From IMG/VR virus record IMGVR_UViG_2695420487_000019: a stretch of DNA of 5,898 nucleotides. The stretch is one strand, 5' to 3'. Below, in pieces: positions 1,581-5,898 of the stretch (the stretch's first letter is position 1; each line of letters opens with the position of its first letter). Source of the DNA: a virus (lineage: Duplodnaviria > Heunggongvirae > Uroviricota > Caudoviricetes). The translations under genes and the position numbers were made by a program. The notes beneath the pieces are model-generated. The model saw only the letters and a program-made list of their open reading frames with translations. It searched no databases and was not told where the DNA came from.

Positions 1581-1888
1581 TACGCAAGCCTCACAATATA
1601 GTTAAATGCGATGTTTTTGACGGTGTTTTCCGCGTTACCAGCAGCGTTAACGGTGATGGTATGTCCATGTGAACCAATCGCAACGGAGTGCGTATGAGCA
1701 CCAATACCGACAGTATGTGCGTGTGCACCTGCGCTTGCAGCAGTACCCGATACAGAGTGCGTATGAGCGCCTGCAGAAGAAGTGTTAACACTGTATTTAG
1801 AATAATCAGGTGATCCACTTCCCGGAGCACCACTGGAACCACCTGAAACAAATGTCATCGAATGGGTATGTGCACCGGCTGTCCCCAT
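1580..1888 (-). pseudogene. stfQ: Side tail fibre C-terminal tip fragment with repeated His-x-His motifs, joined out of frame to the upstream J-like fragment
   Basis: Translation carries five HxH units (GAHTHS three times, GAHAHT once, SHGHT once), as in the iron-coordinating distal tip of T4 gp37-type fibres. The frame is open upstream to 1984 but that stretch overlaps real J-frame coding sequence, so the Met at 1888 is not a natural start. The position between J and tfa matches lambda stf. The symbol follows locus context and is uncertain. Confidence 0.65.
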
Positions 1889-3135
1889 GCATTTACCGCC
1901 CGGACTGTCAGCCTGTAATTTCCCAGCGCCAGCTGCGTGAAGCGATATGTGGTTTCCGTCGTCCGGGCCGTGCTGACCAACCGCTCACTGCCGTCGTCCG
2001 CTGCCACGGTCAGGCGAAGCATAAAGCTCACCCCCTTCACCACCTTCGGCGTGTCCCAGCGCGCCAGCACCTGGTATTCCCCGCTGTCTGCGGTGACTTC
2101 TGCGGTCAGGTGCTGAACTGCTGGCGGCGTGACACCATTCACCGTGCCGCTCTGGTCACCGTCAAAGTGCGCCCCGTTATCCACGATGGCTTCTTTCTCC
2201 GGTACATGCTGCACGGCAGTGATGGCATACGTACCGTCATCGTTCTCACGGATACTCACACAGCGGAACAGGCGCTGACGCAGCGTCGGCAGCTTCAGCC
2301 CCCACACGCTGTACTCGGCAACGCCGTCAGGAACCCGGCTCACTTTCACCTTCACGCCGTCGGTGACGGACTGGACCTCCACGCTCACCGGATTACCCTG
2401 CCCGTCAACCAGGCTTATCAGCGTGGTGCCGGAGGATGGCAGCGTGATTTCACGGTCGAGCGTCAGTGTCCGCGTCTGGCTGTTCACCGCCAGCACGCGC
2501 CCGCCGATGCTGATCCCCGCATAGTCATCATCACAGATTTCAATGACATCACCTGGTACATGGCGAAGCCCTTCGGCACCCACGCTGAAGTCCACGGTCT
2601 GCGTTTCCAGCAGTTCCGTTTTAATCAGCCACAGCCCGGCTCGGTGCGCCTGCCCCCGCCTGGTACAGCCAAAGGCATCCATCTTCGTGACGTTACGACC
2701 GTAACGGGCAATGGCCTGCGTGTCCTCCACAAGCTCTGTCGCCGTCTCCCAGCCGTTATCCGGGTCAATCCAGTTCACCTCAACGGCATTATGGCGGTCC
2801 TTCAGGGCGCTGAAGCTGTAGCGGAACGGCGCGCCATCATCCGGCATCACCACATTACTGCGGTTATAGGTCCACACCTTATCTGATGGTCGGTCCTGCA
2901 CGAACGTCAGCGTCTGCCCGTTCCATACCGGCATACAGCGCATCGCCGAGCAGAAATCACTGAGAACATCCCACGCCTTACGCTGTGTGGTCAGCCAGGC
3001 ATTACAGGTGATGCGCGGCTCCGTGCCGCCAAAACCGTCCGGCACCGACTGGTCGCAACACTGGCCGATGACATACAGCGCCCATTTATCCACATCTGCC
3101 GCACCAAGACGTTTACCCATGCCGTAGCGCGGGTG
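1855..3135 (-). pseudogene. Internal fragment of a lambda J-like tail tip / host specificity gene (about 425 codons), missing its 5' end, with the 3' receptor-binding part replaced out of frame by the fibre tip
   Basis: The ORF 1855..3222 translation from about residue 30 (RYGMGKRLGAADVDKWALY...) to its end (...[23 protein letters not shown]) matches the central region and fibronectin-III-like repeats of lambda gpJ as I recall it. The first 29 codons of the listed ORF lie on Nu1 DNA in another frame and are spurious. Terminates 7 codons after AWGQ, at the junction with the fibre tip. Confidence 0.8.
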
Positions 3136-3370
3136 GCTGGAGATCTGTCTCGCTGGCCTGCCGCAGTTCTTCAACTTCCCGGCGCAGCTTTTCGTTCTCA
3201 ATTTCAGCATCCCTTTCGGCATACCATTTTATGACGGCGGCAGAATCATAAAGCACCTCATTACCCTTGCCACCGCCTCGCAGAACGGGCATTCCCTGTT
3301 CCTGCCAGTTCTGAATGGTACGGATACTCGCACCGAAAATGTCAGCCAGCTGCTTTTTGTTGACTTCCAT
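3113..3370 (-). pseudogene. nohA: 5' fragment of a lambda Nu1-type terminase small subunit gene (N-terminal winged-helix cosB-binding domain, about 78 codons, then 6 foreign codons and a stop)
   Basis: Translation MEVNKKQLADIFGASIRTIQNWQEQGMPVLRGGGKGNEVLYDSAAVIKWYAERDAEIENEKLRREVEELRQASETDLQP matches lambda gpNu1 residues 1 to about 78 almost exactly (from memory), then diverges to PALRHG-stop where the J fragment begins. It sits the same distance downstream of cosN as in lambda. Confidence 0.85.
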
Positions 3371-3595
3371 TGTTCATTCCACGGACAAAAACAGAGAAAG
3401 GAAACGACAAAGGCCAAAAAGCCCGCTTTCAGCACCTGTCGTTTCCTTTCTTTTCAGGGGGTATTTTAAATAAAAACATTAAGTTACGACGAAGAAGAAC
3501 GGAAACACCTTAAACCGGAAAATTTTCATAAATAGCGAAAACCCGCGAGGTCGCCGCCCCGTAACCTGTCGGATCACCGGAAAGGACCCGTAAAG
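3371..3595 (-). other. Lambda-type cohesive end site (cosQ-cosN-cosB), apparently intact
   Basis: The reverse complement of 3371-3559 reads GGGCGGCGACCTCGCGGGTTTTCGCTATTTATGAAAATTTTCCGGTTTAAGGTGTTTCCGTTCTTCTTCGTCGTAACTT...GAAAGGAAACGACAGGTGCTGAAAGCGGGC...TGTCGTTTCCTTTCTCTGTTTTTGTCCGTGGAATGAACA, near-identical to my memory of the lambda left end with its R3, I1, R2 and R1 elements. The reverse complement of 3560-3590 (GGGTCCTTTCCGGTGATCCGACAGGTTACG) matches the lambda right end and cosQ region. Confidence 0.85.
3548..3559 (-). other. cosN 12-nt cohesive-end core (GGGCGGCGACCT on the minus strand)
   Basis: An exact match to the lambda 12-nt 5' overhang sequence is seen directly at these coordinates. 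Confidence 0.85.
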
Positions 3596-3758
3596 TGATA
3601 ATGATTATCATCTACATATCACAACGTGCGTGGAGGCCATCAAACCACGTCAAATAATCAATTATGACGCAGGTATCGTATTAATTGATCTGCATCAACT
3701 TAACGTAAAAACAACTTCAGACAATACAAATCAGCGACACTGAATACGGGGCAACCTC

Positions 3759-3992
3759 ATGTCTACGAAGAACAGAACCCGCAGAACAACAACCCGCAAC
3801 ATCCGCTTTCCTAACCAAATGATTGAACAAATTAACATCGCTCTTGAGCAAAAAGGGTCCGGGAATTTCTCAGCCTGGGTCATTGAAGCCTGCCGCCGGA
3901 GACTGTGCTCAGAAAAAAGAGTTTCTTCTGAAGCAAACAAAGAAAAGAGTGACATTACTGAATTGCTCAGAAAACAGGTCAGACCAGATTGA
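3759..3992 (+). CDS. ynfO: Small ribbon-helix-helix-like DNA-binding protein (77 aa), YnfO/YlcI-type prophage moron protein
   Basis: ORF with ATG at 3759 and TGA at 3990-3992; a G-rich stretch (GGGG) lies about 6 nt upstream of the ATG. The pattern basic arm, beta strand (NIRFP), helix (NQMIEQINIALEQKG), turn (SG), helix (NFSAWVIEACRRRL) parallels Arc/MetJ-type RHH repressors. Size and position (plus strand just past noh and cos) match ynfO of Qin as I recall it. Confidence 0.7.
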   Translation: MSTKNRTRRTTTRNIRFPNQMIEQINIALEQKGSGNFSAWVIEACRRRLCSEKRVSSEANKEKSDITELLRKQVRPD

Positions 3993-4049
3993 AGCAATTT
4001 AGATAATCGTGCAGACTACGCCCCCTCATATCACATGGAAGGTTTATCT

Positions 4050-4460
4050 ATGGATCAGGTAGTCATTTTTAAACAAATATTTGATAAAGTTCGAAACGAT
4101 TTAAACTATCAATGGTTTTATTCTGAGCTAAAACATCACAATGTCTCACATTACATTTACTATTTAGCCACAGAGAATGTTCATATTGTATTAAAAAATG
4201 ATAATACAGTGTTATTAAAGGGCCTAAAAAACATTGTGTCTGTCAAATTTTCAAAGGATAGGCATCTTATAGAAACGACCTCTAATAAGCTGAAATCCAG
4301 AGAGATCACATTTCAGGAATACAGAAGAAACCTTGCTAAAGCAGGAGTTTTTCGGTGGGTTACAAATATCCACGAACAAAAAAGATATTACTATACCTTT
4401 GATAATTCATTACTATTTACTGAAAGCATCCAGAAAACTACACAGATCTTACCACGCTAA
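4050..4460 (+). CDS. ydfO: Uncharacterised prophage protein, YdfO/YbcV-like (DUF1398-type), about 136 aa; the alternative upstream ATG at 4035 would give 141 aa
   Basis: ORF ending TAA at 4458-4460. The ATG at 4050 has a good Shine-Dalgarno sequence (GGAAGG, 4037-4042) 7 nt upstream; the ATG at 4035 has none. Markedly AT-rich (about 28% GC in a hand-counted 60-nt line, 4081-4140). Assignment to the YdfO family rests on size, position and partial sequence memory only. Confidence 0.65.
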
Positions 4461-4469
4461 ACCATAACG

Positions 4470-4496
4470 TCCGGCTTCTCTCACTCCTGAGCCGGA
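4470..4496 (+). terminator. Possible hairpin downstream of the ydfO-like gene (7-bp stem TCCGGCT / AGCCGGA, 13-nt loop)
   Basis: Inverted repeat seen directly; followed by a T-containing stretch (TTGGTTTAAT) but not a clean U-run, so a weak terminator candidate. Confidence 0.3.
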
Positions 4497-4554
4497 CTGC
4501 ATTGGTTTAATAAAAACCATCAACAATTGTGATTTAGATATTCGGAACCATTCA

Positions 4555-4586
4555 AATATAACAAAACCCCGTAAAAACGAGGTTTA
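4555..4586 (-). terminator. Candidate rho-independent terminator downstream of the gnsB-like gene
   Basis: On the minus strand, AAACCTCGT-TTTT-ACGGGGTTT forms a 9-bp stem with one mismatch and a 4-nt loop, followed by TTTTGTTATATTT. It lies 25-55 nt past the gnsB stop (4612-4614). Confidence 0.4.
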
Positions 4587-4611
4587 TGGATAAATTTTAT
4601 TATTGAATACA

Positions 4612-4770
4612 TCAGATTAAATTAATCTTGACATCATAGCTTTCAAGACCCGTCATTTTTTCCCGTGCGGTAAACTGAATACTGGTAACTTCTTTCCCGG
4701 TCTTTTTCTTAAGTTCAATAATTTTTTTTGTTATATATTCAGAAATATCTGCTTCTGCTTTTGTTTTTAA
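4612..4770 (-). pseudogene. gnsB: GnsA/GnsB-family small protein gene, 5'-truncated by IS5 at about codon 5; the remaining 52 codons are fused in frame to 30 codons read from the IS5 end
   Basis: The C-terminal 52 residues LKTKAEADISEYITKKIIELKKKTGKEVTSIQFTAREKMTGLESYDVKINLI align without gaps to residues 6-57 of the 57-aa GnsA/GnsB proteins as I recall them (...TGKEVSEIRFTAREKMTGLESYDVKIKIM). The listed ORF 4612..4860 continues upstream across the IS5 terminus, where the codons L-F-A-P-S are encoded by the IS5 inverted repeat. Confidence 0.75.

Positions 4771-5898
<1,128 letters not shown>

Follow-up and report, generated by a model that had tools for sequence, protein, structure and literature searches.

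Beside the cohesive-end site (cos) of a lambdoid prophage lie two small genes, ynfO and ydfO, and the locus raises the question of whether they form one unit and what such a unit would do. The pair was analysed in a 5,898-nucleotide stretch of viral DNA (IMG/VR record IMGVR_UViG_2695420487_000019), hereafter the window. The original prediction had read it as an AT-rich moron whose two genes travel together, the first encoding an Arc-like ribbon-helix-helix (RHH) protein and the second a protein of unassigned function. Our analysis makes it rather probable that YnfO, a small and probably RHH DNA-binding regulator, heads an accessory unit oriented against the phage late genes, and that the cargo of this unit is here the non-toxic protein YdfO. 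Judged by its sequence, the window comes from a defective lambdoid prophage of the Qin type in E. coli, and the pair is an already catalogued one, at the same locus as in the K-12 Qin prophage. Window positions 3400-4920 matched E. coli NZ_CP144928 (strain SCPM-O-B-12142) with 99.9% identity at full coverage, and RefSeq annotates on the match pinQ, tfaQ, tail-fibre and J fragments, a terminase small-subunit fragment, ynfO, ydfO, a GnsA/GnsB-family gene and an IS5-family transposase.

Both open reading frames (ORFs) proved to be real, and both lie on the plus strand. ynfO occupies 3759-3992 and encodes 77 amino acids (aa), while ydfO ends at 4460 and begins either at 4050 (136 aa) or at an alternative upstream start at 4035 (141 aa). 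The 4050 start was preferred, because a GGAAGG Shine-Dalgarno sequence (4037-4042) stands 7 nt upstream of it and the upstream ATG is out of frame in lambda. With this start the spacer (3993-4049) measures 57 bp, as reported earlier, keeps the frame of both genes and holds a single TGA. Read-through of this TGA, in the form of a 233-aa YnfO-YdfO "fusion" (P0002, 761 member sequences), was considered and rejected: where ynfO has its TGA, P0002 reads W, which marks this protein as a gene-calling artefact of genetic code 4. The two genes point away from cos and oppose the phage late operon. As predicted, they were found to lie between cos and the lysis side, and the late genes are encoded on the other strand; the arrangement is identical in the intact, induced phage PhiR42_1.

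Profile searches gave the families that had been expected, DUF3950 for YnfO (PF13132, E 2.7e-21) and DUF1398 for YdfO (PF07166, E 2.9e-46). YnfO scored above the curated cut-offs (75.6 bits against 25 for PF13132 and 36.6 against 30 for NF041551), is a YlcI-YnfO family protein named ynfO in RefSeq, and also corresponds to PHROG 949. YdfO scored above the Pfam gathering cutoff and has the fold of the DUF1398 structure 2HH8. When the ynfO core was compared with copies from Shiga toxin (Stx) phages, 17 synonymous and 10-11 non-synonymous differences were counted, with a synonymous divergence (dS) of 0.77, a non-synonymous divergence (dN) of 0.09-0.10 and a dN/dS of 0.11-0.13. For ydfO and its lambda homologue, dS was 0.55, dN 0.10 and dN/dS 0.19. 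As judged from such substitution ratios (0.11-0.22), ynfO and ydfO are both under purifying selection.

These values bear on one account of ynfO, namely that it is a chance ORF and that 3560-3920 is conserved as cis-acting packaging (cos) DNA. From cosN through ynfO codon 54, a segment which we take to include cosQ, lambda and the window are 98% identical, against only about 80% for ydfO. However, the Stx phages differ in their terminase module, and before the ATG they share no homology with these sequences; they nevertheless keep the ORF at the low dN/dS of 0.11-0.13, and the DUF3950 family is present in satellites of seven genera. Since the Stx homology starts at the ATG and synonymous changes are in excess, conservation of 3560-3921 for cos only is ruled out, and the probability left to this account is negligible.

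The 77 residues of YnfO divide into a conserved core (1-52) and a variable tail (53-77), and the protein is strongly basic (isoelectric point, pI, 10.6; core 11.2). In the AlphaFold model, predicted as a single chain, an extended segment (residues 11-18) is followed by helices at 19-32 and from 34 onward, with a predicted local distance difference test score (pLDDT) of 84-86 over residues 21-50. The model has the RHH order of beta-strand, helix and helix within about 45 residues. In the DUF3950 family alignment a loop of variable length falls exactly between the two helices, and the residues IRFP, FS-WV, C and L were invariant among 18 diverse members. YnfO probably has an RHH fold on the strength of this model, which is plausible although statistically not established. 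Inside ydfU (DUF968) of the same prophage (locus L003, 17660-17743, minus strand), a weak tblastn match to the YnfO core was also noted (39% identity over 28 residues, E 0.003), which may be chance or a related DNA-binding segment.

A testable regulatory hypothesis for DUF3950 was supplied by its context in satellites. A second subfamily, 54-67 aa long and 32-44% identical to YnfO, occurs in Pasteurella, Actinobacillus, Proteus, Providencia, Morganella, Xenorhabdus, Arsenophonus, Serratia, Yersinia, Erwinia, Pantoea, Klebsiella, Salmonella and Gilliamella. Contexts were read in Proteus, Yersinia, Salmonella, Actinobacillus, Gilliamella, Xenorhabdus and Pasteurella, and every one was a satellite resembling a phage-inducible chromosomal island (PICI), with DUF3950 as the sole rightward gene between the alpA-side genes and the primase operon, divergent from the latter across about 200 bp. 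Alignment of seven of these regions (about 4800-5000 in loci L157, L160, L163, L164, L165 and L167, and 2280-2503 in L156) showed three conserved RGTGT-N5/6-CAC boxes in otherwise variable DNA, the middle box overlapping the TTGACG -35 element of the leftward promoter. From the alignment, this layout looks like a repressor gene beside its operators, in the manner of a three-operator switch. Across the Stx phages and the satellites the DUF3950 gene was always counter-oriented beside a long operon, and the cargo downstream of it varied: YdfO in the window, two unrelated ORFs in Yersinia, and nothing in the Stx phages and Proteus. In one of the seven regions, that of Pasteurella phage Pmp7 (OR544138, L156), a 224-aa "transcriptional repressor" is annotated at 2083-2757 on the minus strand, opposite a 59-aa DUF3950 gene at 2504-2680 on the plus strand (29.3 bits against a cutoff of 25); judging from this overlap, the 224-aa coding sequence is probably a wrong-strand call.

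Taken broadly, DUF3950 might be an uncharacterised family of Arc-like repressors which, in Enterobacterales, Pasteurellales and Orbales, would mark and control the boundaries between the long operons of mobile elements. In the satellites such a protein would be the missing repressor of the primase/replication operon and act through the three RGTGT-N5/6-CAC operators, in lambdoid phages, lambda included, it would control a counter-oriented accessory cassette beside cos or the terminase genes, and YdfO would be one of several exchangeable cargos. We offer this as a tentative generalisation and consider it somewhat doubtful.

In the window, the 12-nt cohesive-end sequence cosN was read off at 3548-3559 as AGGTCGCCGCCC, the reverse complement of lambda GGGCGGCGACCT, and in the alignment position 3560 pairs with the last lambda base, 48502. 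The region upstream of ynfO (3560-3758, plus strand) thus equals the lambda right end on the cosQ side, and over 3560-3921 the window and lambda (48502-48141) share 98.1% identity. Upstream of ynfO we found a palindrome, TGATAAT-G-ATTATCA, at 3597-3611, and an inverted repeat, ATCAATTATGACG / CGTATTAATTGAT, at 3657-3669 and 3677-3689, which can also be written ATCAATTA/TAATTGAT within 3657-3689. We infer that both are candidate operators for YnfO. An octamer, CACGTCAA, at 3646-3653 is common to the window and the satellites.

These features fit into the following scheme. ynfO and ydfO would form a small transcription unit directed away from cos and against the late operon, as suggested by their common strand, the 57-bp spacer and the lack of a terminator-like site between them; no recognisable promoter was found in the spacer (3993-4049) either. 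YnfO, a small and very basic DNA-binding protein that is most likely an RHH dimer, would serve as a transcriptional (auto)regulator, with its sites in the stretch of about 200 bp that precedes its own gene, and this regulation would here also set the level of the downstream ydfO. YdfO itself would be exchangeable accessory cargo: a soluble protein of the cytoplasm, non-toxic and with a fold private to it.

To place the pair in its lineage, it was compared with lambda and with the DLP12 prophage. The lambda homologue of YdfO is lambdap78 (47045-47452, complement), which is 79% identical, and the ynfO homologue is a 64-codon ORF (48303-48109, complement) that shares 98% identity with YnfO over residues 1-54. 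The lambda reference annotation, NC_001416, misses the latter (48109-48303 complement; locus L001, 2710-2904, minus strand), while other lambda-like RefSeq records call it a "YlcI/YnfO family protein". Homology resumes where window 3976-4100 equals lambda 47527-47402. The 54 bp of the Qin-type ynfO 3' end (between window positions 3921 and 3976) are replaced in lambda by 613 bp (47528-48140) that carry lambdap79 on the other strand, and DLP12 has the same 613-bp insert, carrying ybcW (locus L007, 3512-3715, minus strand). The parallel that had been drawn with ylcI-ybcV of DLP12 was therefore right as to position and wrong as to adjacency, since the insert with ybcW separates the two genes there, as the one with lambdap79 does in lambda. 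The last 17 nt of the Qin-type ynfO still sit directly before the lambda ydfO homologue, which shows that the contiguous pair is the older arrangement. According to a 2026 preprint (bioRxiv 10.64898/2026.09.04.749371), lambdap79 triggers the Vulcan (NADase) defence, and escapers of lambda have lost lambdap79 through recombination with Qin; the Qin partner in these escapers is exactly the window segment.

Several observations weigh against the scheme. As to the fold, the best Foldseek matches to YnfO were all RHH proteins (ParD, TCP domain, Reg576; 5ceg, 7b22, 7r5a, 5zkt, 6gyg), but with weak E values of 1.5-9.9, and hhalign aligned residues 12-32 with Arc 9-29 (NIRFP versus NLRWP) with a P of 0.005 and a probability of 7%. 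No RHH family appeared at E <= 10 in the Pfam and PDB profile searches with YnfO, nor at this threshold among the Pfam matches of seven DUF3950 members, and when PDB sequences were searched, first with the single YnfO sequence and then with two family profiles, chance matches alone came up. The Arc-like fold proposed at first is thus plausible from the topology of the model and the hhalign register to Arc, and no RHH match reached statistical significance. As to the DNA, the octamer shared with the satellites could be chance (roughly 0.07 by estimate), no satellite box besides it was found in the window, and a strict GGTGTG-N-CACACC search, itself too narrow, gave nothing convincing. The candidate operators show no covariation, because the lambda-type copies are nearly identical there, and homology between lambda-type and Stx-type copies starts exactly at the ynfO ATG, with no upstream site common to both. 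No sigma-70 consensus promoter was found in 3350-4950, where 4.3 would be expected by chance, and none upstream of ynfO. Finally, in lambda and DLP12 an additional 613 bp, with a gene on the other strand, lie between ynfO and the ydfO homologue, so ydfO may have its own promoter and be independent of YnfO.

This last point leads to the view that the two genes are unrelated neighbours. YnfO would then have its target elsewhere, at a phage or satellite operon boundary or in another element, ydfO would be independent under its own promoter, and the two would be linked by a shared non-essential slot at cos. The distribution of the families is relevant here. Among 70 genomic DUF1398 loci, a DUF3950 ORF lay upstream only where the DUF1398 copy was at least 68% identical to YdfO, and about 36 divergent loci (25-49% identity) had no DUF3950 within 4 kb. 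The divergent genes include the ycgX type of Escherichia, Shigella and Citrobacter and others from Klebsiella, Kluyvera, Pseudocitrobacter and Salmonella diarizonae. They stand alone in the chromosome behind long upstream regions, as ycgX does between bluR and iraM. On the other side, the phages BP-4795 and Stx2_EH2201 carry the DUF3950 gene alone, between Rz and the HNH/terminase block on the opposite strand. The YnfO core was present in 153 phage records and YdfO in 43 (of 50,697). In complete E. coli genomes, ynfO-like DNA occurred at 8362 places in 3785 genomes and ydfO-like DNA at 3875 places in 3019 genomes; 2675 of 5426 genomes had the pair itself, either contiguous or interrupted by the ybcW insert. 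A scan of viral contigs with YnfO returned only copies at least 96% identical and was uninformative on co-occurrence. The claim that the genes travel as a unit thus fails outside the lambda/Qin/DLP12 lineage, given the solitary DUF3950 genes of Stx phages and satellites and the roughly 36 unpartnered divergent DUF1398 loci.

Beside some of the divergent DUF1398 genes, in Kluyvera and related Enterobacteriaceae, a conserved small ORF (MLEGYFDLD...ENRKRLLAVQAALEI...) was observed in divergent orientation (L052 3515-3832, L054 3504-3728, L063 3508-3732 and L073 3532-3756, all on the minus strand). The two copies tested (L052 and L054) matched no Pfam family at E <= 10.

Base composition was examined as well. 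The GC content was 44.4% in ynfO, 31.4% in ydfO, 35.1% in the intergenic region and 31.7% in gnsB, compared with 60.7% in J, 53.5% in Nu1 and a window mean of 48.5%. The earlier hand counts were correct (28.3% at 4081-4140 and 61.7% at 2341-2400), and the description of an AT-rich pair applies to ydfO but not to ynfO, which is near the window mean. The low-GC tract consists of ydfO, the intergenic region and gnsB, so the break falls between the two genes and not around them, which speaks against the separate acquisition of the pair that had been suggested. In composition ydfO and gnsB deviate from their phage neighbours as morons do, and ynfO does not; ydfO is also missing from the equivalent slot in BP-4795 and Stx2_EH2201, as is usual for a gene inserted between neighbours that adjoin in related phages.

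The view of unrelated neighbours gains from this GC break (44.4% versus 31.4%), from the independent distributions of DUF3950 and DUF1398, from the stand-alone divergent DUF1398 genes, and from lambda and DLP12, where 613 bp and a gene on the other strand are tolerated between ynfO and ydfO. In published transcript studies, moreover, ydfO responded as its own unit: its transcript rose 12-fold by microarray and 117-fold by quantitative PCR 30 min after ionic-liquid shock (PMC4077768), and DicC induction altered ydfO (bioRxiv 2024.09.21.614188). Against it, the window genes are co-directional, 57 bp apart and separated by neither a terminator-like site nor a recognisable promoter, and the leftover 17 nt of ynfO in lambda mark the contiguous pair as the older state. 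We regard the neighbours as unlikely to be unrelated, while giving this possibility real weight.

YdfO, the proposed cargo, was examined for a function of its own. It is the protein of the nuclear magnetic resonance (NMR) structure 2HH8 apart from two residues, H29 and L134 here against R and F in 2HH8. The protein is soluble, and its fold, which has a groove-like face, consists of two alpha-alpha-beta-beta-beta repeats, a structural duplication of which BLASTP of one half against the other found no trace in the sequence. The fold is essentially unique: no significant structural neighbour beyond YdfO itself was found, and Foldseek against the viral structures of BFVD gave none at E <= 0.001. 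Neither a nuclease, NTPase, membrane or other effector-like domain nor a transmembrane or signal segment was found, and no PADLOC-DB 2.0 model matched YnfO, YdfO or the GnsB remnant at E <= 1. YdfO has a pI of 9.7 and divergent DUF1398 members have values of 5.8-6.9, so its basicity is not conserved.

A type II toxin-antitoxin system, in which an RHH antitoxin YnfO would neutralise a toxin YdfO through its C-terminal tail, was among the roles that had been considered. The gene order, the sizes, the RHH-like N-terminus with a variable C-terminal tail, and the other addiction genes nearby (gnsB here, relBE and hokD in the same prophage) are all compatible with it. However, in lambda and DLP12 the YnfO tail has been replaced (codons about 55-72) and the gene lies 613 bp off, and yet the YdfO homologue is still selected and lysogens are unharmed. 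In addition, about 36 divergent DUF1398 loci have no DUF3950 partner, and more than half of the E. coli ynfO-like copies lack a ydfO-like neighbour (8362 places versus 3875). YdfO was over-produced for NMR (2HH8), and an over-expression clone of YbcV was viable in a screen, with the glycogen level affected (PMC2853380). Neither protein matched a toxin or antitoxin family in Pfam, NCBIfam or PADLOC, and a spacer of 57 bp exceeds what is typical of toxin-antitoxin operons, as had been pointed out. The lambda/DLP12 rearrangement, the solitary members of both families and the tolerated over-expression together make this role highly improbable, and ynfO and ydfO are best studied separately.

A role in superinfection exclusion or against phages, in which YdfO would be the effector and YnfO its repressor or sensor, finds some encouragement in the position and orientation against the late genes, which are typical of lysogenic-conversion loci (PMC7067206), and in the patchy occurrence of the family, confined to Enterobacteriaceae. 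On the other hand, neither protein matches a PADLOC model (E <= 1), YdfO has no effector-like domain and no significant structural neighbour beyond itself, and the classical lysogen-expressed genes of lambda (cI, rexAB, lom and bor) include neither gene (PMC7067206). One avian E. coli mutant that had become phage-resistant spontaneously lacked ydfO along with other lost genes (PMC8711792), a finding that argues neither way. We consider this role improbable.

The literature on DUF1398 genes gives few further clues. ybcV was among the genes up-regulated in a sabinene-tolerant strain, ycgX was de-repressed in a hha/ydgT mutant, and a 2025 survey gave ycgX no function. lambdap78 was scored as non-essential by CRISPR interference (PMC10695390). 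The labels attached to such genes, "envelope protein" and, for PHROG 413 (RefSeq lambdap78), "head protein", are unsupported because YdfO has no signal or membrane segment; YdfO-type genes moreover lie outside the head cluster on the opposite strand, and the non-essential lambdap78 gives the head label no support either. A claim that over-expression of YdfO confers oxidative-stress resistance (PMC4077768) was followed up and discarded: the paper cites Wang et al. 2010 (PMC3105296), which names YfdO, YfdK and YfdS of CPS-53 and never ydfO. The sole published functional claim for YdfO is thus a mix-up with the name YfdO, and this confusion could be copied by later papers.

Beyond ydfO lies a convergent intergenic region (4461-4611) with a hairpin at 4564-4585, a terminator-like site on the minus strand (4585-4564). 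By its placement the hairpin could terminate the transcripts of both ydfO and gnsB, termination in the plus direction being the presumed part. A gnsB remnant follows at 4612-4771 on the minus strand (PF08178, E 1.1e-30). It can be aligned with the intact gnsB of PhiR42_1 as far as 4771, where the IS5 terminal repeat GGAAGGTGCGAATAAG directly abuts, and the IS5/ISKpn26 insertion (junction 4771/4772) cost gnsB its first five codons or so and its promoter. The ORF that RefSeq gives at gnsB (window 4612-4860) is a 60-aa chimera starting within the end of the insertion sequence. The partial IS5/ISKpn26-family element itself occupies 4772-5898 on the minus strand, runs past the window end, and was recognised by its DDE_Tnp_1 and DUF772 domains, the RefSeq annotation and the junction.

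On the other side of cos, a family match identified an N-terminal fragment of Nu1 (3113-3370, minus strand), which runs into a J fragment (ORF 1855-3222, minus strand) at 3113-3222, the deletion junction of the defective prophage. As Nu1 and J are fused, the head genes and most tail genes between them are gone while cos was kept. Rfam found no RNA family in 3371-4920; at 1039-1237 on the minus strand, inside the tail-fibre assembly gene tfaQ, it reported IS009 (RF02111) at full length with 221.5 bits against a gathering score of 117. We also observed lambda right-end DNA in assemblies labelled Pseudomonas, Kitasatospora, Brevibacillus, Flavobacterium, Staphylococcus, a spider and others (loci L009-L031, L035, L039, L040 and L046-L048), often on contigs of about 3.5 kb or 48.5 kb, together with many "ena" proteins on contigs of about 3.5 kb. 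It looks like spike-in or sequencing-control DNA and not DNA of real hosts, and the size of about 3.5 kb matches that of a nanopore control fragment.

ynfO and ydfO are among the uncharacterised genes of E. coli K-12 and have homologues in lambda, the best-studied phage, so that knowing what they do would fill a small gap of long standing. Among known systems, the K-12 Qin prophage is the closest: it shares the order pinQ-tfaQ-stf'-J'-nohQ'-cos-ynfO-ydfO-gnsB and the RefSeq names, and differs in that the present strain has IS5 in the gnsB 5' end and a YdfO two residues off 2HH8. The ylcI-ybcW-ybcV genes of DLP12 and the lambda right end occupy the same place by cos in the same orientation, with a YnfO core 98% and a YdfO 79% identical; unlike the window, they have a 64-aa YnfO with a different tail, and their ynfO and ydfO homologues are split by 613 bp. 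With the lambda genes bor and lom, ydfO has in common that it is non-essential, lies in the late region and deviates in composition; its place, on the opposite strand between cos and the lysis genes, is also that of bor. bor and lom, however, encode envelope proteins expressed in lysogens, whereas YdfO has no signal or membrane segment and no promoter was recognised for it.

For YnfO, the nearest models are Arc and Mnt of phage P22, which it resembles in small size, basic N-terminal arm and beta-strand, helix, helix order. Within the motif N-[IL]-R-[FW]-P, residues T12, N14 and R16 of YnfO align with Q9, N11 and R13 of Arc, which contact DNA in the Arc-operator structure. YnfO differs in having no significant sequence or structure score, in its helix 2 motif FS-WV-x-AC in place of the usual RHH G-x-S/T, and in that no ant-type target gene lies within the window. 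The regulatory module of Gram-negative PICIs and capsid-forming PICIs (cf-PICIs) has the DUF3950 family in a fixed slot between the alpA-side and primase operons. That module differs in its subfamily and has no DUF1398, and its RGTGT-N5/6-CAC boxes were not found in the window; what the two share is a DUF3950 gene as a small counter-oriented neighbour of a long operon.

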